From an uncultured Candidatus Saccharibacteria bacterium (GTDB taxonomy: Bacteria > Patescibacteriota > Dojkabacteria > JAOAGR01): 64,000 bases of DNA. The stretch spans positions 92,285 to 156,284 of the forward strand of contig CAZDBO010000001.1 in NCBI GenBank assembly GCA_964503755.1. Direction: 5' to 3'. The position numbers and the translations under genes are program-made. Shown here one piece after another: positions 1,237-48,838 of the stretch (positions are counted from its first letter, which is position 1; each line of letters starts with the position of its first letter). The notes under the pieces were generated by a model, which worked only from the letters and a program-made list of their open reading frames with translations, had not been told where the DNA came from and ran no database searches.

Positions 1237-1842
1237 TTATTTTTTATCACTTACATAAAAACAATCACCATGACCAGGATAGAGTAGAGTATCATCTGGT
1301 AATTCTAGTATTTTTTGAATTGATTTTCTCATATTAGTAGGTGAACTATAAGAAAAATCTGTTCTACCAATTCCATCTTCAAATATAGTATCACCAATAA
1401 AAGCGTATTTTTGATCTTTTATTATAAAAATACTTGATCCAGGTGTGTGACCAGGAGTCCATATAATTTCAAATTCAAAATTTCCAACACGAAATTTATC
1501 CGTATTTTCATCAAAAAACTTAATGTTTTTAGGTTTTAAATAATGCGGATCATAACCTAAAAAATACTCTGCAGTTTCTTTTAATCTTTCAATTAAAAAT
1601 TCATCTTTTTTATTAATGTAAAGTGGTACATCAAACGACAACTGAATTTCACCAGCTGCACCTATATGATCAAAATGACCGTGTGTCTCTAAAATTCCCA
1701 CTAGTTCCAAACGATTAGATAATATGAAATTTAATATAAAATCAGCTTCGTCCCCGGGATCAATCAAGACACATTGATCTTTTGCTTCAATAACATAACA
1801 GTTACTTTTTAGTGGCCCTAATACAAAATGGTATATTTTCAT
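1237..1842 (-). CDS. metallo-beta-lactamase-fold hydrolase (glyoxalase II-like)
   Basis: THGHFDH zinc-binding motif, 201 aa. Ends 2 nt before the malic-enzyme start and overlaps the ilvD stop by 4 nt. Confidence 0.7.
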
Positions 1843-3608
1843 TTATCCTTTTCTCTATTTATAGCTGCAAGAGTGTTGTCCATCACTGCACCATAGTTTG
1901 CACTCATCACATGTTGTGTATACCTTCCTAGCCATCCATTTTTTACTTTTGGCTCAAAAGGTGGAATATTTTCCATTCGTTCATTATATTCATCTTGAGA
2001 TATGAATAGATCAATTGTTCTTTTATATGCATCAATTTTTATTCTATCACCATTTTTTATAATTGCTATAGGTCCACCTGATGCTGCTTCTGGAGAAATG
2101 TGACCTACACAAAGTCCTCTAGTACCTCCAGAAAATCTACCATCAGTAATAAGTGCCGCTTTGACACCTATACCTTTTAATGCTGAAGTCGGAGATAACA
2201 TCTCTTGCATTGCTGGGCCTCCTTTTGGACCTTCGTACCTTATTACTACAACATCTCCATCTTTGATTTGTCTTTTCAAAATAGCATCCAGTGCATCCTC
2301 TTGAGAATCAAAACACACCGCGGTACCTTCAAATACCATCATATCTTCATCTACGCCTGCAGTCTTAACAACTGCACCATCAGGTGCGATATTTCCATAC
2401 AAAATAGCAAGTCCACCAGTTTTAGAAAACACATTATCTCCGCTTCTGACTACGTCTTCATCTGGTTCCATTGCATCAGCAATGTATTCTTCTAGTGTTT
2501 GTCCAATAATATTTTTACAATGCAAATTTAGTGGTGGGTTAGAAGATTTTTGTACTGCTTTTAATATAGTTTTAAGTCCACCAACTCTATTTACATCTTC
2601 GATATGTACATCTGGTCTTGATGGAGATACTTTGCATACATTTGGAGTCTGATCTGCTAATTCATTTATTCTTCTAAGATCGTAAGGTATACCAGCTTCA
2701 TAAGCTAACGCTAATGTGTGTAGAATAGTGTTTGTAGAACCACCCATCGCTAAATCTAGGATTATTGCGTTGTCTATAGACTCATAAGTAACTATATCTC
2801 TTGGTCTAATATTGTTTTGAAGTATATATTCTATAGCATCTGCCGCTCTTTCAAAGAGATTTATTCTTTCTGGATTGATTCTCCACGTGCCTTTTTCTTT
2901 ATCTATCCATTCAGCAGCAGGTACAGTACCATTGCCTGGCAATGCTAAGCCCAATACTTCAGCAAGACAATTCATAGAGTTGGCAGTGAACATACCCGCA
3001 CAACTTCCACAAGTACGACAAGCCTTTTCTGTAATTTTAATCAATTCATCTTCTGTTATTTTGTTGGCTGTGTATTTTCCTACACCTTCGAATACAGTTA
3101 TTAGATCTGTTTTGTCTTGACCTGCAAGCATTGGTCCGCCGGATATATAAAGAGCTGGTATATTTAGTCTTACCATAGCATTAAGGATTCCTGGTACTAT
3201 TTTGTCACAGTTACCGATACCTATCCAAGCGTCAGCAGGGTGGGCTCCTATTATTGTTTCTATCTGATCAGTAATTAGTTCTCTTGAAGGTAATGAATAC
3301 TTCATACCAAAATGCCCCATTGCGATGCCATCATCAACCAATCCACCGATGTTGCAGTACCAAACATTGAATCCCTTTTCTTTTAGTTTTTTTACGATAA
3401 TATCTCCAAGCTCGCGCAAATGGGCATGACCAGGAATGTGGTTTGTAAATGAATTTACAACAGTGATAAAAGGTCTATCTTTATCTTTTACGCTATCTAT
3501 TACTCCTGCTGCTATCATCAGAGATAGAGCAGGTAGCATATGAAGACTTTGAGTGAGTATTTTACTACCTTTTTGGTGGATTTGTTGGAATCCTGGATTT
3601 AATGCCAT
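1839..3608 (-). CDS. ilvD: dihydroxy-acid dehydratase
   Basis: 589 aa. IlvD/Edd-family motifs ([22 protein letters not shown]) and a conserved C-terminus. Confidence 0.9.
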
Positions 3609-3617
3609 TTTAATTTA

Positions 3618-4670
3618 TTATTCTTTTTGATTTTCCGGTCGGAGTTTCCTTACTTGTTCACCGGCTTGCCACATCTCTGAATTTCTCATTTTGGCAAGTT
3701 CAGCATTTAATTTCTCTCTATAGTTTTTTTGTTTATTCTTTCTAATTACTCTTTGAGCTTCTTTACCTGATGCTACTGATCTATAAAGCTCTTTAAAAAC
3801 TGGCATTACTGCTTTTTTGAATCTATCTTTCCAATCTAGAGCTCCCCTTTGTGCTGTTGTTGAACAGTTTGCAAACATCCAATCCATACCGTTTTCCGCA
3901 ATTAAAGGAATTAAACTTTGAGTAGCCTCCTCTACTGTTTCATTAAAAGCTTCAGACGGCGAATGGCCCATTTTTCTAAATAGTTCATACTGGGCCTCCA
4001 TGATGCCGGCCATCGCACCCATCAAAACACCTCTCTCCCCAACAAGATCCGAATATACTTCCTTCTCAAATGTTGTTGGGAAGAGATATCCTGTACCAAT
4101 TCCGATACCTATGCTGATAACCCTATCTCTCGCTTTTCCTTTAGCATCTTGATAGATTGCAAACGAAGCATTGATACCTTTACCTTCTAAAAAATTTTTT
4201 CTTACCGATCTTCCAGCGCCCTTTGGAGCTACTAAAATTACATCAATGTCTTTAGGAGGAATAATTTTTGTATATTTTGAAAATGTTATTCCAAAACCGT
4301 GAGAAAAACACAAAGCTTTTCCTGCTGTAAGGTATTTTTTAATCTTTGGCCATACTTCGATTTGTCCAGCGTCAGACAAAAGATAGCATATTATGGTACC
4401 TCTTTCAGCTGCCTCTTCTATTTCAAAAAGTGTTTTCCCCTCAACCCAGCCATCAGCTACTGCCTTGTCCCAAGATGCTGTTCCTTTTCTTTGACCGATA
4501 ATTACATTAAATCCATTGTCTCTCAGATTGAGAGCTTGGGCTGGACCCTGTACGCCATAGCCTATTATGGCTATTACTTCGTCTTTTAATGTTTGTTTTG
4601 CTTTTTCTAGTGGATATTCTTTTTTGGTGATGACTTCTTCTACGACACCACCGAAATTTATTTGTGTCAT
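3618..4670 (-). CDS. ilvC: ketol-acid reductoisomerase
   Basis: 350 aa. N-terminal Rossmann GYGVQGPAQALNLRDNG typical of class I KARI. Confidence 0.9.
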   Translation of the reverse strand: MTQINFGGVVEEVITKKEYPLEKAKQTLKDEVIAIIGYGVQGPAQALNLRDNGFNVIIGQRKGTASWDKAVADGWVEGKTLFEIEEAAERGTIICYLLSDAGQIEVWPKIKKYLTAGKALCFSHGFGITFSKYTKIIPPKDIDVILVAPKGAGRSVRKNFLEGKGINASFAIYQDAKGKARDRVISIGIGIGTGYLFPTTFEKEVYSDLVGERGVLMGAMAGIMEAQYELFRKMGHSPSEAFNETVEEATQSLIPLIAENGMDWMFANCSTTAQRGALDWKDRFKKAVMPVFKELYRSVASGKEAQRVIRKNKQKNYREKLNAELAKMRNSEMWQAGEQVRKLRPENQKE

Positions 4671-11809: not shown

Positions 11810-13528
11810 ATGTCAAACGATTCTGAAGAAGTAAAAACGGGTGCTGAATTGGTGGCTCAAACTATTGTTGACCTTGGTATAGATATGATCTTTGGTTATC
11901 CTGGTGGTGCTATCATGCCAGTACATGATGCTCTTTATGTATATGAATTGCAAGGAAAAATGAAACATTATGTCCCAAGACATGAACAAGGTGGTATACA
12001 TGCTTTAGAAGGGTATGCAAGAGCGAGTGGAAAAGTTGGGGTTATATTTGTGACGTCTGGTCCTGGTGCTACTAATTTGGTAACAGGTATTGCTGATGCT
12101 CTTATGGATTCTGTACCAGTTATATGTATTACAGGACAGGTAGCAACACATTTGATAGGCACAGAAGCTTTTCAGGAAACAGATATTATAAATGTTACTA
12201 AACCTATCACCAAATGGAATTATCAAATCAGAGATCCAAGAGAGATACCATATGTTTTGGAAAAAGCTTATTATATAGCAACGACTGGGCGACCAGGTCC
12301 TGTACTAATAGATATACCTAAAGATATGCAGACAGCAAAAGTAGATCTGTCTGAAGTGCAACATTTTGAAATTCCTAAAGAACAATATGACTTAGATGAA
12401 AGTTTGATAAAAGAAGCAGCAGAGTTGATTAATTCATCACAAAGACCACTTGTATTGGTGGGGCATGGAGCTATTATTTCTAATGCACATGATGAAATAA
12501 AAGAATTGTTAGAAAAAGGACATCTGCCATTTGCTTGTACTTTACATGGATTATCTACATTGCCCAAGACTCATCCAAGTTATGTAGGTTTTTTGGGAAT
12601 GCATGGTAATTATGCACCAAATAAGCTTACAAATGAGGCTGATTTGCTAATTGCTCTAGGTATGCGTTTTGATGATAGAGTCACTGGTAATCTTAAAAAA
12701 TATGCACCAAATGCTAGGGTAATTCATATTGATGTAGAGAAATCTAAGATTAACCGTAATGTAAAAGCAACAATTGGTATTAATGCAGACTTGAAAGTTG
12801 CGTTATCAAAATTGAATAAGTATATCAAATTTGTAGATAGAAATTCTTGGTTTGATAGGTTTAGCGAATTGCATTCCATCGAAACAGAAAAAGTTATTAA
12901 AGATCAAATTAATCCAACAAGTGACAACATTTTAATGGCAGAAGTTGTTAAACTACTTTCGGATATCACCAATGGTAGTGCAAATATAGTAGCAGATGTC
13001 GGCCAACATCAAATGATAGCAGCAAGATATTATGAATTTCAAAGATTAAATAGCTTCTTTTCATCTGGTGGATTGGGAACTATGGGATTTGCTCTTCCTG
13101 CTGCGATTGGTGTTAAATTAGCAAGGCCTCATGAAGAAGTTATAGCTATTATTGGTGATGGAGGATTTCAGATGACCATGCAAGAACTTGCTCTGATATC
13201 CTATGAAAATATACCTGTAAAAATAATAATTTTGAATAATGGATTTTTGGGTATGGTCAGACAATGGCAAGAGATGTTTTTTGATAAGAGATATGCCTAT
13301 ACAAATATGAGTAATCCAGACTTTGTAAAACTAACAGAGGCTTATGGAATAAAAAGTAGGCGTGTTGATTCTAGATCTCAGCTAAAAGAAGGTTTGATTG
13401 AGTTAGTAAGGTCTGAGAGAGGATATTTATTAGAAATTATTGTACAAAAAGAAGATATGGTATTTCCTATGGTGCCTCCAGGTGCATCTATAGAAGAAGT
13501 TGTTTTGGAATCACCTAATCTAGAATAA
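11810..13528 (+). CDS. ilvB: acetolactate synthase / acetohydroxy-acid synthase large subunit
   Basis: 572 aa ThDP enzyme. GYPGGAIMPVHDAL; GDGGFQM...NNGFLGMVRQWQ ThDP-binding motif. Confidence 0.85.
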   Translation: MSNDSEEVKTGAELVAQTIVDLGIDMIFGYPGGAIMPVHDALYVYELQGKMKHYVPRHEQGGIHALEGYARASGKVGVIFVTSGPGATNLVTGIADALMDSVPVICITGQVATHLIGTEAFQETDIINVTKPITKWNYQIRDPREIPYVLEKAYYIATTGRPGPVLIDIPKDMQTAKVDLSEVQHFEIPKEQYDLDESLIKEAAELINSSQRPLVLVGHGAIISNAHDEIKELLEKGHLPFACTLHGLSTLPKTHPSYVGFLGMHGNYAPNKLTNEADLLIALGMRFDDRVTGNLKKYAPNARVIHIDVEKSKINRNVKATIGINADLKVALSKLNKYIKFVDRNSWFDRFSELHSIETEKVIKDQINPTSDNILMAEVVKLLSDITNGSANIVADVGQHQMIAARYYEFQRLNSFFSSGGLGTMGFALPAAIGVKLARPHEEVIAIIGDGGFQMTMQELALISYENIPVKIIILNNGFLGMVRQWQEMFFDKRYAYTNMSNPDFVKLTEAYGIKSRRVDSRSQLKEGLIELVRSERGYLLEIIVQKEDMVFPMVPPGASIEEVVLESPNLE

Positions 13529-20309: not shown

Positions 20310-20600
20310 ATGGCAGCAAAAATTAAAAAAGGTGATTCTGTAAAAGTTATGAGTGGAGCTTATAAAGGTAAAGTTGGTATAGTCAGTCGTGTCGATCGAA
20401 AAAACAATCTTGTATACATTGATGGTATAAATGTGAAAAAAAGAGCGGTTAAAAAGGGAGAGAATTCTAATGACAATTTTGTATATATAGTACATCCTAT
20501 ACATTATTCAAATGTAAAAAAAATTGAACCATTATCTGATACTCACAATTCAGAAAAAAGTTTAAACGGTGGTGATTTCTCAAACCGCGAGACTGAATAA
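20310..20600 (+). CDS. rplX: 50S ribosomal protein L24
   Basis: 96 aa. KOW motif IKKGDSVKVMSGAYKGKVG. Confidence 0.92.
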   Translation: MAAKIKKGDSVKVMSGAYKGKVGIVSRVDRKNNLVYIDGINVKKRAVKKGENSNDNFVYIVHPIHYSNVKKIEPLSDTHNSEKSLNGGDFSNRETE

Positions 20601-21406
20601 TGAAATCTTTAAATAATTCTATTTCTCTTTCGGAAATCGATTCTTTGATAGATTCCAATTGCGTTATTGTTGGTAATAATGCTATTCATGATAATCTTTT
20701 CGTATTTCTGAAATATATATATTTTGTTGTTTTGTCAGATAATATCAAGTCACCTAAGGTAAAAAATTCCATTGATTTCTTGAAGAAAAATAATGTATTC
20801 ATAATTTATTCATCGAAACTAGTAAAGTATATAAATACAAAACTGCATTTACAAAAAAAAAATGTTAAGTTTTTTTTGTTTATAGATTCAAAGCTAAGAA
20901 ATATTGTTAGTCTAAATTATTTCATTGAGGATTCTGTTAAATTAAAATATAGTACTGTTGTTGCTTTTCCCAGTTTGGATTACGAATACAATGTTGGATC
21001 AATGATTAGAACATCATATGCCTTCGGGGTCGATGCTATTTTAATACCTAAAAATTTCAAAAATTTTTACTCACCAGCTGTAACAAAGATATCAACAGGA
21101 TATAATTACCAAATAAGGGTTATACAAGATAAATTTGTTGATTCATTGCGTAGACTTAAAGATGCCGGTTTTTGTTTATACTGTTTCGATTCTTTAGGTG
21201 GTGAAAATATATCAAAAGTAGTGTATAATCCAAAAGCTTGTTTTGTATTTGGCGATGAAGCCAAAGGAATTGAAAAATATATAATGAGAGAATGTGATTA
21301 TACTATTGCCATACCGATGCAAAATGGTGTAGAATCACTCAATGTATCGGTAAGCTTGGGAATAGCACTGTATGACAGAAAATATAAGCAGGATATATGT
21401 CTTTAA
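20600..21406 (+). CDS. SPOUT-class RNA 2'-O-methyltransferase (TrmH/SpoU family) with ~120-aa N-terminal extension
   Basis: All three SpoU motifs are present: YNVGSMIRTSYAFGVD (motif 1), FVFGDEAKGI (motif 2), IAIPMQNGVESLNVSVSLGIALYD (motif 3). The start overlaps the rplX stop by 1 nt (TAATGA). The stop overlaps the rplE start by 10 nt. Confidence 0.8.
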   Translation: MKSLNNSISLSEIDSLIDSNCVIVGNNAIHDNLFVFLKYIYFVVLSDNIKSPKVKNSIDFLKKNNVFIIYSSKLVKYINTKLHLQKKNVKFFLFIDSKLRNIVSLNYFIEDSVKLKYSTVVAFPSLDYEYNVGSMIRTSYAFGVDAILIPKNFKNFYSPAVTKISTGYNYQIRVIQDKFVDSLRRLKDAGFCLYCFDSLGGENISKVVYNPKACFVFGDEAKGIEKYIMRECDYTIAIPMQNGVESLNVSVSLGIALYDRKYKQDICL

Positions 21407-23463: not shown

Positions 23464-23922
23464 ATGGAAACAAACAACAAACAACAAAATAGTACAGAAT
23501 TTGAGTCTTATGTACTTTATACTAATAGAGTGACTAAGGTTGTAAAGGGAGGGAAGCGATTAAAATTTCAAGCGTTGGTGGTTGTTGGTAATAGAAAAAA
23601 TAAAGTAGGGTTGGGCTTTGCTAAGGGAGTCGATCCTAAGTCAGCTATAGAGAAGGCAACAAGAAAGGCCAAGAAAAACTTGAAACACGTTGTGGTGCGC
23701 GGCACGACGGTTCCTTATGATGTTATGAGTAAGTTTAAAGCAGCACGTATTTTTGTAAAGCCCGCAAAGCCGGGTACGGGTCTTATTGCAAGCAAGTCTA
23801 TTAGACCTGTATTAGAATTGGGTGGGATACAAGATGTTTATTCAAAAGTTTATGGTACTAAAAACAAGATAGCTAATGCCTATTGTATTTTTAATATTAT
23901 TACGAATTTTAAAGCTAAATAA
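23464..23922 (+). CDS. rpsE: 30S ribosomal protein S5
   Basis: 152 aa. VTKVVKGGKRLKFQALVVVGN. Confidence 0.95.
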   Translation: METNNKQQNSTEFESYVLYTNRVTKVVKGGKRLKFQALVVVGNRKNKVGLGFAKGVDPKSAIEKATRKAKKNLKHVVVRGTTVPYDVMSKFKAARIFVKPAKPGTGLIASKSIRPVLELGGIQDVYSKVYGTKNKIANAYCIFNIITNFKAK

Positions 23923-23932
23923 TTAGTAGGTT

Positions 23933-24361
23933 ATGTTGAATAATTTAATAAAAATAAAACAGAAGTCAAAAAAGAGAATTGGTAGAGGTGGAGGTTCCGG
24001 GAAAGGTTTTCATACAGCCACACGAGGCCAAAAAGGCCAGAAATCTAGGGCAGGTTATTTTAGAAGAAAAGATTTTCAAGGTGGACAAAAGCCATTAAGC
24101 AATAAACTTCCAAGAATAAGAAAATCATTTACTGTAGTTAAAAAACAAAAGCCAAAGACTATAAAAATTGATTTCTTTTATAACATAGGTATTACAGAAA
24201 TTAATCCTGAAGTAGTTTCTAAATATTTTCCAACTAAGAACTACATAATTACTGGTTCGTCTAGTTCAGACATAGAATATTCTAAATTTGTATTATCAGG
24301 CGTAAAATTAACAAATAAATTAAAAGAACAAATAATAGCATCTGGTGGTAAGGTAGAATAA
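23933..24361 (+). CDS. rplO: 50S ribosomal protein L15
   Basis: 142 aa. RIGRGGGSGKGFHTATRGQKGQKSR. Directly follows rpsE with no rpmD between them. Confidence 0.92.
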   Translation: MLNNLIKIKQKSKKRIGRGGGSGKGFHTATRGQKGQKSRAGYFRRKDFQGGQKPLSNKLPRIRKSFTVVKKQKPKTIKIDFFYNIGITEINPEVVSKYFPTKNYIITGSSSSDIEYSKFVLSGVKLTNKLKEQIIASGGKVE

Positions 24362-24377
24362 GTGCTATATTTCGTAT

Positions 24378-26015
24378 ATGAAATTTATTGAATTATTAAA
24401 GTCTTTTTTATCAAATAAAGACATTTTGGTACGTTTGTCTATTACTTTTATAATTATAGTAATATATAGATTTTTATCTAAAATACCTGTTCCCGGCATA
24501 GAAAGAGATGCATTGGCGACTTTTTTTTCAAATCAACAAGGAGAAACCATTGGGCTTTTTAATGTAGCAAATATCCTTTCTGGGGATTCTTTATCAAATT
24601 TTTCTATTATTTCATTTGGAGTTGTGGCATATGTTAGTGCATCTATAATAATGCAATTACTCGGTGTGATTATTCCTAAAATAGAAGAAATCCGAAAAAT
24701 GGGTGCTGTTGGAACTAAAATACTGGATCAGTGGACACGTATACTAACAGTGCCTTTAGTTTGTCTTCAGGGGGTAGGAATGTATCTCGCACTAAGTTCA
24801 AGTAACAACCCTTTAGGAAGACCAATATTGGATCCAATTGAATTTAACACCTTGCGTGTTATTAGTACTATTGCAGTTTTAGTAGCTGGTACGATGCTTT
24901 TGATGTGGCTTGCTGAGATTTTGACAGAGTCTGGAATCAGTGGTGCTAAGAGAGGAGGTGGATTTAGTGTTATTATCACGGCTGGTATATTATCATCATT
25001 ACCTGCGGCTATCGTGAATGATTTTTCAAACATACAACTCAGTCGTTTTTTACAAAATATGTGGATTGCATTATTGATTCAATTCGTAATCTTTTTAATT
25101 TTATTAATCCTGTTTGTTGGATATGTGAAATTAGTAAAGTATGTATTTAATTTAAAGACAAAAGCATATAAGATTATTGGTGGGATGTTTTTGTCTTTTG
25201 TTTTGTTGTCAATACCTATTATTATTACGTTTGTAGTTAGATCACAAGATCCGACTTCTCTTTATATAAAGGATTTTATACAATTGAATTTGGCTAGATT
25301 AAATGATTTTGAGGTTAAGTTCGGATTTTTTATTGGTATACTTTTACAAGTAATAGGAATAATAGTTTATTTTAATGAATCTGTTAGAAAAATACCCATT
25401 AGGTTTGTATCACAAATCACGGTACGAACGAATTATGTTGCAGAAAAAAGTTCTTTTATTCCTGTTAAATTTTTCATCATAGGTATTATTCCAACAATAT
25501 TTTCTATGTCTTTTTTAGCTATGCCAGAATTCGTCTATCGATTTTTTGGAAATTCTATAAATGACTGGAATCCAGCTGTTGGTGAATTTGTAAGATATAT
25601 GTCGCAAGGTTGGTTTAATCAATTTAATAGTGAGTATTATTACATAGTTTCTTTTATGTTAACAGTATTTTTTTCTCTGTTTTATGTTAATGCTGTGATA
25701 AAGCCCGAAGATATAGCAGAAAACTTATCAAATATGAACTCATTTATACCAGGTTTAAGACCGGGTAAAGACTCTCTCGAATATATATCAAGAATTTTTA
25801 ACTATATGGCGTTTTGGGGCGGTATTATTTTGGCATTTTCTACTGTAGCTCCATTCTTGTTAGGTGTTTATTCTCAAACAACCATATCCTCTGTTGAAAG
25901 ACTTTTAGCTGGTGGTACAAGCCTTCTTATTTTGGTACCAACATTTTTGTCCATAAAGGATCAAGTTCTGTCAATGATACTTACTAAAAACTACGATAAA
26001 TATCGAGAAATATAA
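24378..26015 (+). CDS. secY: preprotein translocase subunit SecY (extended, 545 aa)
   Basis: Position after rplO. 10 TM pattern. About 100 aa longer than typical SecY. Confidence 0.85.
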   Translation: MKFIELLKSFLSNKDILVRLSITFIIIVIYRFLSKIPVPGIERDALATFFSNQQGETIGLFNVANILSGDSLSNFSIISFGVVAYVSASIIMQLLGVIIPKIEEIRKMGAVGTKILDQWTRILTVPLVCLQGVGMYLALSSSNNPLGRPILDPIEFNTLRVISTIAVLVAGTMLLMWLAEILTESGISGAKRGGGFSVIITAGILSSLPAAIVNDFSNIQLSRFLQNMWIALLIQFVIFLILLILFVGYVKLVKYVFNLKTKAYKIIGGMFLSFVLLSIPIIITFVVRSQDPTSLYIKDFIQLNLARLNDFEVKFGFFIGILLQVIGIIVYFNESVRKIPIRFVSQITVRTNYVAEKSSFIPVKFFIIGIIPTIFSMSFLAMPEFVYRFFGNSINDWNPAVGEFVRYMSQGWFNQFNSEYYYIVSFMLTVFFSLFYVNAVIKPEDIAENLSNMNSFIPGLRPGKDSLEYISRIFNYMAFWGGIILAFSTVAPFLLGVYSQTTISSVERLLAGGTSLLILVPTFLSIKDQVLSMILTKNYDKYREI

Positions 26016-26823: not shown

Positions 26824-27051
26824 ATGAGTAATAATACGAAAGTTACTGTAGAAGGCAAAGTAATAGAATGTTTAAGGGGAACTGAATTTATGGTAAGAAT
26901 AGATTTGGGAGATAATATGTATGAAGACATAGTAGGTTATATTTGTGGTAATTTGAGGAAAAAGTATATAAAAGTTGATGTTGGTGATAAGGTTATGATA
27001 GAAATAAGTAAATACGATTTAAATCGTGGTAGAATAATTAAAAAATTATGA
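26824..27051 (+). CDS. infA: translation initiation factor IF-1
   Basis: S1-like OB fold. [21 protein letters not shown]...[18 protein letters not shown]. The track ORF starts at 26758; the Met at 26824 gives a typical 75-aa IF-1. Confidence 0.88.
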
Positions 27052-27209
27052 AAGTACAAACAAGTGTAAGAAAAAGATGTTCAGACTGCTATATTGTTAA
27101 AAGAGAAGGTGTGTTGCGTGTATACTGTAAAAAAAATCCTCGACATAAACAAAAACAGGGGAAAAAGAAAATGGGACAACTTAAAAAAACTAGAAGATCT
27201 AAGAAATAA
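27048..27209 (+). CDS. rpmJ: 50S ribosomal protein L36 with Lys/Arg-rich C-terminal tail
   Basis: Missing from the ORF track (<60 aa). Hand translation gives [38 protein letters not shown] (zinc-ribbon L36 core) plus about 15 extra basic residues. The ATG overlaps the infA TGA. Confidence 0.8.
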
Positions 27210-28021: not shown

Positions 28022-28639
28022 ATGTCGAGATATACAGGACCAAAAACAAAAATCTGTCGCAGAGAGAGAACGGATGTTTATCCTAGAGTGGGTGAACTTG
28101 TGCAAGTGCCGAAAAGAATGAAAAAGAGGACTGCGCCTGGAGAGCATCCTATGTATCCTAGATTAAGTCAGTTTGGAATTCAATTTAGAGAGAAACAAAA
28201 GGTCAAGAGAATGTATGGAATGACAGAAAAGCAATTTAAAAGGTTTTTTGAAATGGCACTACGAAAAGAAGGAAATACTGGATTATTATTTTTGCAGTTA
28301 TTAGAAATGCGTTTAGATAATGTTGTTTTTAGAGCAGGATTAGCAAAAACTAGAAATCAGGCAAGGCAGTTTGTGAACCATGGGCATATTTTAGTTAATG
28401 GTAAAAGGGTGGATATACCATCTTATATAGTGAAAATTGGTGATGAACTTGAGTTGAAGGTTAATATTACAAATTCAGATTGGTATACCAGTTGGTATAA
28501 TAGTATATCTAGTTATATGCCACCATCATGGATCCAAAGAATGGATGCTTATAAAGTAAAAATTTTGAGAACTCCTGATAGACAAGATATTGAATTAACA
28601 ATAAATGAACAAAATATAGTCGAATATTATTCAAGATAA
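28022..28639 (+). CDS. rpsD: 30S ribosomal protein S4
   Basis: 205 aa. SRYTGPKTKICRRE N-terminus and S4 domain. Confidence 0.93.
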   Translation: MSRYTGPKTKICRRERTDVYPRVGELVQVPKRMKKRTAPGEHPMYPRLSQFGIQFREKQKVKRMYGMTEKQFKRFFEMALRKEGNTGLLFLQLLEMRLDNVVFRAGLAKTRNQARQFVNHGHILVNGKRVDIPSYIVKIGDELELKVNITNSDWYTSWYNSISSYMPPSWIQRMDAYKVKILRTPDRQDIELTINEQNIVEYYSR

Positions 28640-28646
28640 AAGTAAG

Positions 28647-29324
28647 ATGTCAAACTTAACAATACAAAAAAAAGAAATAGAAAAAAATAAATATTCTTAT
28701 ATTATTGGTCCTTTCCCTAAAACATGGGGAAATACGTTTGCTGCACCTATTCGTAGATCATTATTAAATAGTATACCAGGTGCTGCTATAACAAAAGTAC
28801 GTATAAAAGCTGTTGATCATGAATTTACAGGTTATGATGGAATGAAAGAAGATGTTTTGTACTTTGTATTAAATCTTCAAAAAGTAGTTATCAGAATGGA
28901 CTCTAGTGATAGTGAAAAGTTAAAACTAAAAGTAAAGGGACCAGGAGAGATAAAAGCGGGCGATATAGATTGTCCGTCAAATGTTGTGATAGTTAATCAA
29001 GACTTGGTTATTGCTACATTAACAGCTGATGTTGTATTAGAAGCAGAAATGACAGTAGAAAAGGGCGAAGGTTTCAGGTTGGCTGATGATGATATACGTA
29101 ACGTGGAACCTGGTGTCATACCGGTTAGTGCCAATTTTAATCCAGTACTTAGAGTGGGGGTTTCTGTAGAAGCGGATCGTGTAGGTCAGAGTACTGATTA
29201 TGAAAAGATTGTCTTAGAGGTAGAGACTAATGGAGCTATACACCCAGATGATGCACTGCGTGAAGCTTTGTCAAATCTTGATTCAAAACTTCAAAATATA
29301 ATAAATCAGGCAAATCAATTATAA
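28647..29324 (+). CDS. rpoA: DNA-directed RNA polymerase alpha subunit, N-terminal domain only (225 aa)
   Basis: Aligns to the alpha-NTD (GNTFAAPIRRSLLNSIPGAAITKVRIKAVDHEF). Stops at 29324 and rplQ starts at 29332, so no alpha-CTD is encoded here. Confidence 0.85.
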   Translation: MSNLTIQKKEIEKNKYSYIIGPFPKTWGNTFAAPIRRSLLNSIPGAAITKVRIKAVDHEFTGYDGMKEDVLYFVLNLQKVVIRMDSSDSEKLKLKVKGPGEIKAGDIDCPSNVVIVNQDLVIATLTADVVLEAEMTVEKGEGFRLADDDIRNVEPGVIPVSANFNPVLRVGVSVEADRVGQSTDYEKIVLEVETNGAIHPDDALREALSNLDSKLQNIINQANQL

Positions 29325-29331
29325 GATTGTT

Positions 29332-29667
29332 ATGTATAAAAAAAGGAGTGTTGTAAAATTAGGCAGGCCTAGAAAAGAGAGAAAACTCATGGTAAAGTCG
29401 CTTCTTAAGGATTTGATAGTACATGGTTATATTCGCACAACAAAGATGCGGGCTTGGGTCGTAGCTAAGGAGTTTGATGCTCTCATGAATGATGTTGTAA
29501 ATAACAATTTAAGATCAGCCTATCTAAAATTAAATGATGAAAAAATGCTTGAGAAACTAAAGCAAATGAATATTAATGATAAAAAAACAGGATTTAGTAG
29601 AATTATTAAAATTGGTAATCGTAGGGGAGACGGTGCAGAATTAGTCTTATTAGAAATTATAAAGTAA
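29332..29667 (+). CDS. rplQ: 50S ribosomal protein L17
   Basis: 111 aa. GRPRKERKLMVKSLLKDLIVHGYIRTT. Confidence 0.92.
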   Translation: MYKKRSVVKLGRPRKERKLMVKSLLKDLIVHGYIRTTKMRAWVVAKEFDALMNDVVNNNLRSAYLKLNDEKMLEKLKQMNINDKKTGFSRIIKIGNRRGDGAELVLLEIIK

Positions 29668-29678
29668 TTAAATGAATT

Positions 29679-30110
29679 ATGAAAAAAACAACATCGCTAA
29701 AAAAATCTGATGTAAGTAAAAATTGGCTTCTTGTTGATGCTTCCGATCAAATACTTGGCAGGCTTGCTTCTAAGATTTCTCTTATTTTGCAAGGCAAGAA
29801 TAAGCCAAACTATGCACCAAATTTGGATTGTGGTGATTATGTAGTTGTGATTAATGCAGAAAAGATAAAAGTAACAGGTGATAAACTGAATTCAAAAATA
29901 TATCGAAAGCATTCCGGATATATTGGTGGATTAAAAGAAAAGACATTAGAACAATTAATGACTAAAAATCCTACTGTCGTTTTACGTAATGCAGTATATA
30001 GGATGTTACCCAAAAATAGAATGCGAGATGTGTATATATCTAAATTAAAAATTTATGCTGGATCAGAACATCCGCATGTTGCACAAAAACCAGAAATGAT
30101 AGAGATATAA
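29679..30110 (+). CDS. rplM: 50S ribosomal protein L13
   Basis: 143 aa. WLLVDASDQILGRLASKISLILQGK. Confidence 0.95.
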   Translation: MKKTTSLKKSDVSKNWLLVDASDQILGRLASKISLILQGKNKPNYAPNLDCGDYVVVINAEKIKVTGDKLNSKIYRKHSGYIGGLKEKTLEQLMTKNPTVVLRNAVYRMLPKNRMRDVYISKLKIYAGSEHPHVAQKPEMIEI

Positions 30111-30122
30111 TAAAACATCGTT

Positions 30123-30539
30123 ATGAAAGCAATTGAAAATACAAACGAAAAAAAACACATTCAGTACGCAGTAGGTAGAAGAAAAAGAGCTTCCGCTCGT
30201 GTAAGAATGTACGAAGGAGAAGGAAAGGTAACTATCAATGGAAAAAGTTTAGAGAAATTGGGAGTATCAAAGATAAAAATAAAAGAGGTTTTTGATGTTA
30301 TTTTTAATACGGAATTATTCAAAAATTATGATTTTTCTGTAAAAGTAGTAGGAGGTGGAGTATATGCTCAGTTAGAAGCTGCAAGGCATGGTATAGCAAG
30401 ATGTATAGCAAAACTTAGTGATGATGCTAAACAAACAATGAGAAAATTAGGTCTTTTGACAAGAGATCCTAGAGAAAAGGAAAGAAAAAAAGTTTACCTT
30501 GTAAGAGCTCGCAAAGCTCCACAATATTCGAAGCGTTAG
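30123..30539 (+). CDS. rpsI: 30S ribosomal protein S9
   Basis: 138 aa. C-terminal DPREKERKKVYLVRARKAPQYSKR. Confidence 0.95.
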   Translation: MKAIENTNEKKHIQYAVGRRKRASARVRMYEGEGKVTINGKSLEKLGVSKIKIKEVFDVIFNTELFKNYDFSVKVVGGGVYAQLEAARHGIARCIAKLSDDAKQTMRKLGLLTRDPREKERKKVYLVRARKAPQYSKR

Positions 30540-34928: not shown

Positions 34929-36869
34929 TTATTTTATCCATCTACAGTTAAGTTTTTGGTTATTTTCTAGATTAACTATATTTGGACATACAGATCTGTG
35001 TATTTTGATGCCACTAAATCGTGTAACAACTGCAATAATTTCATCGCCAAAAATCGGCTTACAGCATTTTCCAAAGTTATATTCACAATTTTCCAGTCCA
35101 TCAATAATTATAGTTTTGTTAGTTTTGTTTGTAACGGATGTTGATTTCTTATTTTGTTTAGAGAATTTAACGATATTGTTATTATCTTTATATATTATTA
35201 TCTCTTTAATTATAGATTCTAATGTTCGACTTTTGATCCATCCCTGGGCTGTACGGACAAATAAAGTTTCCTCGCTATCCAAATTTAGTTTTTGTATTAT
35301 TTTTTCTTTATTTTCACTTGTAATTTTTTTCCATGAAAGACTAAAGTGTTCATTTAACAAAAAATCTAATTTTATTTTTCCTATATTGATGAGTTCTTCC
35401 TTTTGTGCAAATTTACGATATTCAGTTCTGATTTTATCTTTTGTAGATTTCATTTTGGCTATTTCAAGCCATAATAAGGAAGGTTTTTTGTTTGTTTTAG
35501 AAGTAATAATCTCTACAATATCCCCATTATTCAAAATATGATCCATTTTTACATGAGCATTGTTTACTTTTGCACGGATAAAATTGTTACCAACTGCAGT
35601 ATGGATTGCATATGCGAAATCTATTGGGGTTGACCCTTTTTCTAATTCGATGATTTTGCCTTTTGGGGTGATTACAAAAATCCTGTCATCAAACAGATTT
35701 ATGCTATAGTCAATTCCTTGAGACCATTTATTTAAATCTTCGGTCCAACTGTATTCGCTATTAGCAAGTGCATGTTTGCGATTTGCCAATTTATAAGCTA
35801 TGTGTGAAGCCGGTCCAAATTCGTTATAATGATGCATGTCGTCAGTTTTGATTTGTATTTCTACAAAATGATGACCATATTGGATCGTGGTTTGTAAAGA
35901 TTTATACCCGTTTGGCTTCGGTTTGGCTATATAATCATCAAATTCGCCTGGTAAGTAGTCTAAGTTTTGATGAACAATGCCAAGTATTGTATAACAATCT
36001 TTAGGTTCCCCAGTTATAACTACAGATATTGCTATAAGATCCTTTATTCTGTTAATTTTGTCTAGGTCAAATTCCTTTATTTTACCCTCGCGAATATATT
36101 TATGTATTTTATTGTAAATTGAATAAACGGATTTAATCCTACCGAATATTCGATAAGGAAATGATATATTATTAATTTTAATCAGTTCATCAACTTTTTT
36201 AATTATTTTGTCTAAAGTAGAAGGATTAATTTTGATCTTTTCCTGAACTACACGTTTTATATTGTTATAAAGTATTGGATCTTTCTTAAAAAATGCTATA
36301 TCTTCAAGCTCTCTTTTCCAAGAGTGTATACCTATATATTCGCAAAGTTGTACATATACATTGAGAGTTTCTACTCCATACCTTTGTTGTTTTTCTGGTT
36401 TTAATGCGTCAATAGTACGCATATTATCAAGTCGATCAGCAAGTTTTATAAGTAAAATTCTTATATCCTGTACCGATCTAACAATTAGCTTTCTTAAATT
36501 ATCAAATTCTGCATATCTTTCTAGTGATTTATCTGCTATAGCATCTACTTTTGTGACTCCATCGACAAGTGTTGCTATTTCCCAGCCAAATCTTTCAGCA
36601 ATATACTTTTTGTCAACATTACAATATTCAATAGTGTCATGAAGTAGGGAAGCACAAACTGCTTCTTCACTAATGCCAAGTTTTGCTGTATCAATAGCTA
36701 CTCTTAAAGGATGAACTATATACGGATCACCACTTTTACGGATTTGTCCTTCGTGTAATTTGTATGCCTCTTTAAATGAGTTTAAAATAAGGTTCGTATC
36801 ATATCCTTTCTCCGAACATATATTTAACAATTCTTCTTTAAGTGATGGAATGTCGTTATTAACTTTCAT
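34929..36869 (-). CDS. rel: bifunctional (p)ppGpp synthetase/hydrolase Rel (no C-terminal ACT/RRM domain)
   Basis: 646 aa. HD hydrolase (HPLRVAI, LLHDTIE), RelA/SpoT synthetase, TGS (DFAYAIHTAVGN) and zinc-finger domain (CxxxxxCCKPIFGDEIIAVVTRFSGIKIHRSVCPN). Ends right after the zinc-finger domain. Confidence 0.85.
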   Translation of the reverse strand: MKVNNDIPSLKEELLNICSEKGYDTNLILNSFKEAYKLHEGQIRKSGDPYIVHPLRVAIDTAKLGISEEAVCASLLHDTIEYCNVDKKYIAERFGWEIATLVDGVTKVDAIADKSLERYAEFDNLRKLIVRSVQDIRILLIKLADRLDNMRTIDALKPEKQQRYGVETLNVYVQLCEYIGIHSWKRELEDIAFFKKDPILYNNIKRVVQEKIKINPSTLDKIIKKVDELIKINNISFPYRIFGRIKSVYSIYNKIHKYIREGKIKEFDLDKINRIKDLIAISVVITGEPKDCYTILGIVHQNLDYLPGEFDDYIAKPKPNGYKSLQTTIQYGHHFVEIQIKTDDMHHYNEFGPASHIAYKLANRKHALANSEYSWTEDLNKWSQGIDYSINLFDDRIFVITPKGKIIELEKGSTPIDFAYAIHTAVGNNFIRAKVNNAHVKMDHILNNGDIVEIITSKTNKKPSLLWLEIAKMKSTKDKIRTEYRKFAQKEELINIGKIKLDFLLNEHFSLSWKKITSENKEKIIQKLNLDSEETLFVRTAQGWIKSRTLESIIKEIIIYKDNNNIVKFSKQNKKSTSVTNKTNKTIIIDGLENCEYNFGKCCKPIFGDEIIAVVTRFSGIKIHRSVCPNIVNLENNQKLNCRWIK

Positions 36870-37875
36870 AGTTTATAAAATATTTTGTACTTTTTCCGTT
36901 TCCTTCCGACTTTAATATACCCTTATCAGATAAGTATATTAAGTCTCGATAAGCTGTCATTGGAGATACTTTAAATAATTTGCAATATTCATTGCGGTTA
37001 ATATAAACTTTTTTTCTTAAAATATTAATTAGATTAATCTGTCTTTCATTGAGATCTAAATTTTTTAGTTTGTTTTCAAATACAGCATATGAAGTTCTAT
37101 TTTTTGATTCAAGTATGTTATAAAATTCTTTTGATATGAGGTTTATTAGTTCTGTTACAAAGTTTTCCGAATTAATATTTTTTTTAATAAAATTATTTAA
37201 ATTTGTTATCTGTAAAATAGAGGATGCTGTTGGAATTGTACCGTCTAGATCATATTGATAATTATGTAGTACTAGTTTAAATAGCAATAATCCTACAATG
37301 AAATTAAATGCATAAAATGGAGCGGTGCTAATTATTAGTGAAAATATTATTATAGACTTAATGAGTGGGTGAGTTTCTTTTTTTACGGAAGCGTAATTTA
37401 TTGCTTCTATGATTATATTATTTATATTATCAATCTTTGGGTATTGCAAAAAATCTGGATCATAAGCTTCTTTATGATTTATCTTATCAAATATATTTCT
37501 TGTTCGACTAATATATATCTCGCTTATGATGTTTTTTTGTATCAATCTTAATATCTGTTGTAAGTCATAAAAATTTATTTCTGTTGTAGTACTTTTGTTT
37601 AATAAATACTGATTGGCATCAAAATAATTTTTTACTATCCATTCTTCTTTGGTCTTGGATATACCAGTGTTAATAATTTTTCTTATATCACATTTATTTC
37701 TTTGTATTTTAATCAAATCACAAATATATGATATTTCTTCTTCTACAGATATGTTTTGTAGATCTTCTAATCTTTTTTTATTATTTTTTGTTATTTTATT
37801 TATATAATATATAAGAGCTTCTATTTTAGATATATAAATTAGAGCAGAATCACTTATCGTATACAAGATATCCAT
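36859..37875 (-). CDS. Fic-fold protein with degenerate active-site motif and C-terminal winged-HTH
   Basis: 338 aa. Fic-like helical core (HPLIKS...STAPFYAFNFIVGLLL where HPFxDGNGRxxR is expected). C-terminal KLFKVSPMTAYRDLIYLSDKGIL HTH. The stop overlaps the rel start by 11 nt. Confidence 0.45.
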   Translation of the reverse strand: MDILYTISDSALIYISKIEALIYYINKITKNNKKRLEDLQNISVEEEISYICDLIKIQRNKCDIRKIINTGISKTKEEWIVKNYFDANQYLLNKSTTTEINFYDLQQILRLIQKNIISEIYISRTRNIFDKINHKEAYDPDFLQYPKIDNINNIIIEAINYASVKKETHPLIKSIIIFSLIISTAPFYAFNFIVGLLLFKLVLHNYQYDLDGTIPTASSILQITNLNNFIKKNINSENFVTELINLISKEFYNILESKNRTSYAVFENKLKNLDLNERQINLINILRKKVYINRNEYCKLFKVSPMTAYRDLIYLSDKGILKSEGNGKSTKYFINYES

Positions 37876-48352: not shown

Positions 48353-48838
48353 ATGGATAACGCGACTAATAATAGATATACTTTTACACAAGAAGGTTAT
48401 GATAAATTAAAAGCCGAATTAGAGTATTTAAAGACGGTCGTCCGTGAAGAAATTACAAAAAAGCTTAATGAAGCCGTCTCATATGGTGATCTTTCAGAGA
48501 ATGCTGCTTATGCTGTTGCGGTAGAAGCTAGAGATGTTAATGAATCAAGAATTGCTGAATTGGAAGAGATACTTGCTAATGCAGTTATTGTTAATTCTCT
48601 TTCTAATTCTAAAAATGATATAGATATTGGTTCTGTAGTAACTTTGGAGGATTTATCAAATGGAGAAGTAATACAATTTACTGTTGTTGGAACAGGAGAG
48701 ACAGATTTTACACAAAGAAAATTTGGAGTAGATAGTCCCATGGTATCACAAATAATTGGTAAGAAAAAAGGTGATGAAGTAGAGATCAATACACCAGCTG
48801 GTGTAAAACGATTTCTAGTTAAAAATGTGGAAAATTAG
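48353..48838 (+). CDS. greA: transcription elongation factor GreA
   Basis: 161 aa. N-terminal coiled coil with acidic tip (YGDLSENAAY). C-terminal FKBP-like domain. Confidence 0.88.
   Translation: MDNATNNRYTFTQEGYDKLKAELEYLKTVVREEITKKLNEAVSYGDLSENAAYAVAVEARDVNESRIAELEEILANAVIVNSLSNSKNDIDIGSVVTLEDLSNGEVIQFTVVGTGETDFTQRKFGVDSPMVSQIIGKKKGDEVEINTPAGVKRFLVKNVEN

Follow-up and report, generated by a model that had tools for sequence, protein, structure and literature searches.

An RNA Polymerase Alpha Subunit Restricted to Its N-Terminal Domain in Candidatus Dojkabacteria

The rpoA Locus

The window, as the whole 64-kb stretch of DNA analyzed here will be called, belongs to a Candidatus Dojkabacteria (CPR/Patescibacteria) genome of about 0.7 Mb with a GC content of about 30%. 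[quoted passage not shown] It extends from 28647 to 29324 on the forward strand, starts with ATG and encodes a protein of 225 aa which corresponds to the alpha N-terminal domain (alpha-NTD) only, as judged from Pfam, PDB, AlphaFold2, Foldseek and dN/dS analyses. Its upstream neighbor is rpsD, encoding ribosomal protein S4 (28022–28639, forward strand; PF00163 and PF01479). The gene ends with a TAA stop codon at 29322–29324 and is separated by the 7-nt spacer GATTGTT (29325–29331, forward strand), which has no coding capacity for an inter-domain linker or an alpha C-terminal domain (alpha-CTD), from a complete rplQ gene that bounds it downstream (29332–29667, forward strand). The 111-aa product of rplQ, ribosomal protein L17, matches PF01196 over residues 20–109 (E = 1e-12) and TIGR00059 (L17; E = 9e-15).

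Because rplQ is complete from 29332 onward and only seven nucleotides precede it, a CTD would not fit at this locus. A genetic code with UGA recoding would be irrelevant to the end of rpoA since the stop codon is TAA. The 225-aa open reading frame is present on the forward strand exactly as the initial annotation had claimed. The same annotation placed the stop 8 nt before rplQ: the adjacency of the two genes holds, while the spacer is in fact 7 nt long, 8 being the difference between the coordinates.

Domain Content of the Alpha Subunit

Two Pfam domains cover the protein. PF01000, the insert domain that contacts beta and beta', is found at residues 51–165 over its full profile (positions 1–119, E = 2.1e-27), and PF01193, the dimerization domain of the alpha-NTD, at residues 27–215 (E = 7.8e-18). 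No match to PF03118, the alpha-CTD, was obtained in the protein even at E ≤ 1, so that profile alignment bears out the earlier claim of an alpha subunit consisting of the NTD only. Regarding the curated NCBIfam models, the window alpha scores below every rpoA cut-off, namely 200.4 against 227.8 for TIGR02027, whose equivalog cut-off is not reached, and 222 against 277 for NF003519; the cut-offs are missed because the CTD is missing, the aligned model positions being only about 5–230 of 300–340. The archaeal subunit D model NF001988 gives 35 bits against a cut-off of 153 bits, and over residues 176–224 only, whereas the bacterial rpoA models reach 200–222 bits. The window alpha is therefore clearly of bacterial type, and an archaeal-type subunit D gained by transfer was rejected, the bacterial models scoring far higher.

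Alpha chains from the PDB align to the window alpha only over their residues 8–230 or so, with E-values down to 1.5e-44. Among them is 1bdf_A (235 aa), the classical Escherichia coli alpha(1–235) fragment (PDB 1BDF). In a pairwise alignment with the E. coli alpha sequence, residues 8–220 of the window alpha pair with residues 16–233, which would put its end at about E. coli residue 238, i.e., at the border between NTD and linker. An AlphaFold2 model computed with an alignment of the clade as input (pLDDT 86.3, pTM 0.78) shows helices at residues 28–41 and 200–224, the latter being the last element. The tail beyond the last NTD helix amounts to 0–2 aa. Over about 220 of the 225 residues, Foldseek matches this model to alpha-NTD chains solved in RNA polymerase complexes, with TM scores of 0.81–0.89.

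Search for a Hidden C-Terminal Domain

A CTD HMM was made from the C-terminal parts of 90 full-length relatives and run, with the filters off (hmmsearch --max), against the six-frame translation of the whole window, comprising 1154 segments between stops with a minimum length of 25 aa. Nothing credible was found in the six-frame 64-kb window, including every frame downstream of 29324, the best match being a 29-aa fragment at E = 0.16. Likewise, no match was found in the related loci (6–20 kb around rpoA) outside full-length rpoA genes. A frameshifted continuation encoding a helix-hairpin-helix CTD downstream of 29324, which the initial annotation had named as a possible refutation, was looked for and is present in no frame. 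Frameshift or read-through into a CTD can thus be set aside on the grounds of the TAA stop, the 7-nt spacer, the complete rplQ and the empty CTD HMM search, and the earlier statement that the locus cannot encode a CTD stands on the same observations.

Conservation Among Dojkabacteria

The 18 protein clusters nearest to the window alpha (clusters at 90% identity, 48–96% identical to it) contain proteins of 225–256 aa, none of which (0/18) carries PF03118, and in a word-indexed search all the matches above 48% identity are short alphas. In the species-representative collection, a short rpoA directly followed by rplQ can be found in five genomes (loci L001, L003, L004, L005, and L006), among which L005 is the complete 738,054-bp Ca. 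Dojkabacteria genome AP026679.1 and L001 a 723-kb contig of GCA_017880035.1. The rpoA-rplQ junctions are equally short in all five, and no CTD was found in the 6–20 kb flanking their rpoA genes. The gene order rpsD-rpoA-rplQ is common to these five, L001 included, and is also present in L002, L083, L085, and L089. The other loci returned, about 75 from Actinomycetota, other Patescibacteria and further groups, almost all carry a CTD; the exceptions are L039, cut by a contig end, L031, split across two reading frames, and L051. Many of the short "CTD-less" matches in the representative library are frameshifted or chimeric and were left out of the counts. In a neighbor-joining tree of the NTD regions, the alphas of Dojkabacteria form one monophyletic CTD-less clade. 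[quoted passage not shown]

The locus L051 (CAZEEW010000004.1, labeled as an uncultured Gammaproteobacteria MAG) encodes at 3001–3768 a 286-aa stop-to-stop alpha without a CTD match and with a 46-aa tail, which lies outside the CPR clades. Within Dojkabacteria, a subclade (P0011–P0013, P0015, P0017, P0018, and P0129) harbors a strongly acidic tail of about 20 aa after the alpha-NTD, e.g., DESAQEDESEEAEVIKEESDE.

At the nucleotide level, the Logan assembly L089 (run SRR11582145) is identical to positions 28480–30324 of the window over 1845 of 1845 nt, including the stop codon, the spacer and rplQ, and the alpha protein itself is identical to the database protein P0128. The rpoA ortholog of Ca. 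Dojkabacteria bacterium SKW36 (L003), with 84% nucleotide identity, stops at the same codon. The comparison of these two genes gives a dN of 0.051 and a dS of 1.03, that is a dN/dS of 0.05, and the window rpoA is under strong purifying selection. With a junction that is the same base for base in a separate assembly and the same stop in L003, the suggestion that the assembly had collapsed a longer gene fails.

Other Genes of the Window

The remainder of the window consists of ordinary housekeeping genes, and scanning it against Rfam and for tRNAs yielded three tRNAs only. Genes related to transcription and its regulation encode a RelA/SpoT homolog with HD, RelA_SpoT, and TGS domains (34929–36869, reverse strand), a protein of 338 aa whose C-terminal part is a DeoR-like HTH (36859–37875, reverse strand) and GreA (48353–48838, forward strand). 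The organism keeps some transcription regulation despite its CTD-less alpha and is not regulator-free in the manner of extreme endosymbionts.

Several features of the ribosomal-protein region can be mentioned. A SpoU-family RNA methyltransferase of 268 aa (20600–21406, forward strand) is inserted in the ribosomal-protein operon between an rplX-like gene and rplE, and the same insertion is found in the relative L001 (1841–2653). No L30 gene is present between rpsE (23464–23922, forward strand) and the next open reading frame (23933–24361, forward strand, 142 aa); the latter lies at the position expected for rplO and has no Pfam match at E ≤ 0.001, as is also the case for its equivalent in L001. 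SecY (24378–26015, forward strand) is unusually long with 545 aa and its Pfam match comes in two separate segments, suggestive of a large insertion; the SecY of L001 has 560 aa. An L36-like open reading frame of 53 aa (27048–27209, forward strand), which reaches the start of rpsM, carries a Lys/Arg-rich C-terminal extension of about 15 aa past the usual length of about 38 aa. Genes for branched-chain amino-acid biosynthesis, namely ilvD, ilvC and a gene for an acetolactate-synthase-like TPP enzyme, are found at 1839–4670 (reverse strand) and 11810–13528 (forward strand), and deserve mention because CPR bacteria usually have little biosynthetic capacity.

CTD-Less Alpha Subunits in Other Lineages

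The tree of NTD regions contains a second, much larger CTD-less clade that is separate from Dojkabacteria. Searching with a profile of this clade gave 8000 candidates, none with an E-value above 1e-20. All of the 120 highest-ranking ones among these 8000 are 240–271 aa long with PF01000 and PF01193 only, and those that have a name belong to Ca. Wolfebacteria, Jorgensenbacteria, Paceibacterota, and Minisyncoccia, all of them Parcubacteria/Paceibacteria. The CTD HMM matched none of the 113 new parcubacterial alphas. Their tails are 9–42 aa long, net positive in 108 of the 113, and end in poly-Lys (alphas with Lys-rich tails: P0278–P0390, P0033, and P0108). The rpsD-rpoA-rplQ context was confirmed for two of the parcubacterial alphas (L083, 4001–4816; L085, 975–1730). 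These proteins resemble the window alpha in their CPR origin, in combining PF01193 and PF01000 without PF03118 and in their operon slot; they differ from it in forming a separate clade and in having a Lys-rich tail, which the window alpha does not have. The poly-Lys tail may stand in for the CTD by binding DNA non-specifically. The acidic tails found in some Dojkabacteria are of the opposite charge.

Microgenomates relatives such as Woesebacteria and Shapirobacteria have kept the CTD. For this reason, the losses in Dojkabacteria and Parcubacteria would most simply be read as two independent events, as far as a distance tree of one protein can indicate.

Alpha subunits limited to the NTD have been documented in Ca. 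Hodgkinia cicadicola and Ca. Tremblaya, where the loss was deemed tolerable because neither assembly nor basal transcription needs the CTD (PMC8321222). Like the window alpha, these proteins retain the alpha-NTD alone. Both organisms are endosymbionts from the Proteobacteria; their genomes are very small and lack transcription factors (PMC8321222), unlike the Dojkabacteria genome studied here, which has about 0.7 Mb and keeps regulators, namely the DeoR-like HTH protein, RelA/SpoT, and GreA. Loss of the alpha-CTD has also been stated for Parcubacteria and microalgal chloroplasts (PMC8321222). According to that paper, which cites Sheveleva et al. (2002; PMC101230), the rpoA of the Euglena chloroplast has no alpha-CTD; this alpha differs from that of the window in belonging to an organellar polymerase with nuclear-encoded partners. 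As to Parcubacteria, the reference given (PMC4508563, reference 68 of PMC8321222) contains neither "polymerase" nor "rpoA" nor "alpha subunit" in its text, so that the statement is correct by the present searches but its citation does not support it. A literature search on the alpha-CTD in Patescibacteria/CPR returned nothing beyond this one sentence of PMC8321222, and no paper was found on alpha-CTD loss in Dojkabacteria or on alpha tails.

Other unusual architectures can be found among the database alphas. In P0134 (274 aa), the region after the alpha-NTD consists not of a CTD but of a Lys-rich stretch and, at the C-terminus, a CPKC...H...C motif that resembles a zinc finger. Two diverged tandem alpha-NTDs occur in one polypeptide in P0131 (526 aa, NTD-NTD-CTD) and P0132 (664 aa, NTD-CTD-NTD-CTD), an arrangement that suggests single-chain alpha dimers. 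The internal duplication of P0130 (569 aa) is exact, and the protein may owe its form to an assembly error.

Comparison With the E. coli Fragment and Archaeal Counterparts

The alpha-CTD is a textbook part of the bacterial RNA polymerase, which reads UP elements and serves as a docking site for many activators. In E. coli, it binds UP elements and class I activators, whereas alpha(1–235) is enough for alpha2-beta-beta' assembly and for basal transcription but supports neither UP-element-dependent nor class I-activated transcription. The window alpha has the same extent as this fragment; the latter is a laboratory construct whereas the form described here is natural and conserved. Homologous assembly-platform subunits that are naturally without an equivalent of the alpha-CTD are archaeal Rpo3 (subunit D) and eukaryotic Rpb3/AC40, which share PF01193 and PF01000 with the window alpha. 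The latter is predicted to form a homodimer, presumably without a partner of the Rpo11/L type.

Interpretation and Alternative Explanations

The window rpoA is very probably a genuine and functional gene in which an ancestral deletion has left an alpha subunit devoted to assembly. Such a deletion, lineage-wide, would have removed the inter-domain linker together with the whole alpha-CTD, and the remaining 225-aa protein would end with the last helix of the dimerization domain. By analogy with work on E. coli, its dimer would still nucleate core assembly; the complete NTD fold and the purifying selection lead to the prediction of alpha2 formation and of assembly with beta and beta'. The resulting holoenzyme would, if the E. 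coli enzyme is a guide, make no alpha-DNA contact upstream of the -35 element and offer no alpha-CTD surface to activators. By extrapolation, UP-element use and class I activation are predicted to be absent. With neither of these interactions available, promoter strength would come from sigma-DNA contacts, and regulators would either work via sigma, beta, or beta' or be repressors. An enzyme of this kind can be considered viable because there are precedents in Parcubacteria (CTD in 0 of 113 alphas), Hodgkinia, and Tremblaya.

The initial annotation had left the choice between a stripped-down initiation apparatus and a CTD supplied in trans. In the latter case, the alpha-CTD would be encoded elsewhere, as a stand-alone small protein or as part of a fusion, and would join the polymerase as a separate chain. 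The scope of the search leaves some space for such a gene, covering 64 kb of a genome of about 0.7 Mb and 6–20 kb around rpoA in five relatives, and the regulators kept by the organism might argue for a retained activator target. However, neither the window nor, outside full-length rpoA genes, the related loci gave a credible match to the CTD HMM, a CTD without its tether would no longer benefit from the high local concentration conferred by the linker, and Parcubacteria show that outright loss of the CTD is tolerated in CPR bacteria. A split gene is for these reasons unlikely. The stripped-down apparatus is the better supported of the two options, no CTD being found in the window or in the five related flanks and a second large CPR group being likewise without one.

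A second alpha paralog, in which a full-length rpoA located elsewhere would encode a partner with which the short copy heterodimerizes, is less probable still and can be regarded as very doubtful. Francisella has two alpha genes, and its RNA polymerase with alpha1 and alpha2 (6wmp) is among the PDB matches; tandem alpha-alpha fusions also exist in the database, including P0131 with its two NTDs and single CTD. In a profile search of 1.84 billion representatives, however, similarity at the level of Dojkabacteria was found only in the short P0129 and P0001, the next-best matches being from other lineages. The word-indexed search, with nothing but short alphas above 48% identity, points in the same direction, and the short gene sits in the canonical operon slot.

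The least probable explanation, to the point of being barely conceivable, is that a frameshift, a collapsed assembly, or gene decay shortened the open reading frame: the length is unusual and the NCBI pipeline annotates the ortholog MCX8034752.1 (P0126) as "hypothetical protein N3A71_00465," but this label is accounted for by the NCBIfam cut-offs missed for lack of a CTD, an assembly artefact is excluded by the identical independent assembly (L089) and the stop conserved in the 84%-identical ortholog, a pseudogene by the dN/dS of 0.05, no CTD remnant is present in any frame of the window, and the same architecture recurs in at least 19 protein clusters and five genomes, one of them closed.

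Implications

Returning to the deletion of linker and alpha-CTD as the preferred reading, the loss is real but not unprecedented, being routine in another large CPR group. CTD loss has already been recorded in other lineages, and a transcription specialist would find the present case noteworthy rather than very surprising; the advance is incremental and lies in a second CPR lineage with the barest form of the subunit. A conserved and selected CTD-less alpha across a CPR class means that natural RNA polymerases can do without the domain beyond the case of extreme endosymbionts. It leads to the prediction that Dojkabacteria are without UP-element-dependent promoters and without class I activation.

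On the practical side, curated rpoA models miss CTD-less alphas, which can distort marker-gene and completeness estimates, and marker sets built on the NCBIfam rpoA models may miss rpoA in Dojkabacteria. Regarding what, if anything, replaces the CTD, the comparison of tail-less or acidic-tailed Dojkabacteria with Lys-tailed Parcubacteria provides a lead.

A further-reaching proposal, which we consider to have an even chance of being correct, is that Dojkabacteria lost the CTD independently of Parcubacteria, without a DNA-binding replacement, the tail being absent or, in some members, acidic, and without a CTD supplied from elsewhere in the genome, all promoter recognition and regulation passing through sigma, beta, and beta'. 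If this is true, their RNA polymerase would exemplify, in nature, a bacterial enzyme whose alpha platform serves assembly only, in the archaeal style, and, together with that of the Lys-tailed Parcubacteria, would represent one of two contrasting natural solutions to the lack of an alpha-CTD in organisms that bear regulators.
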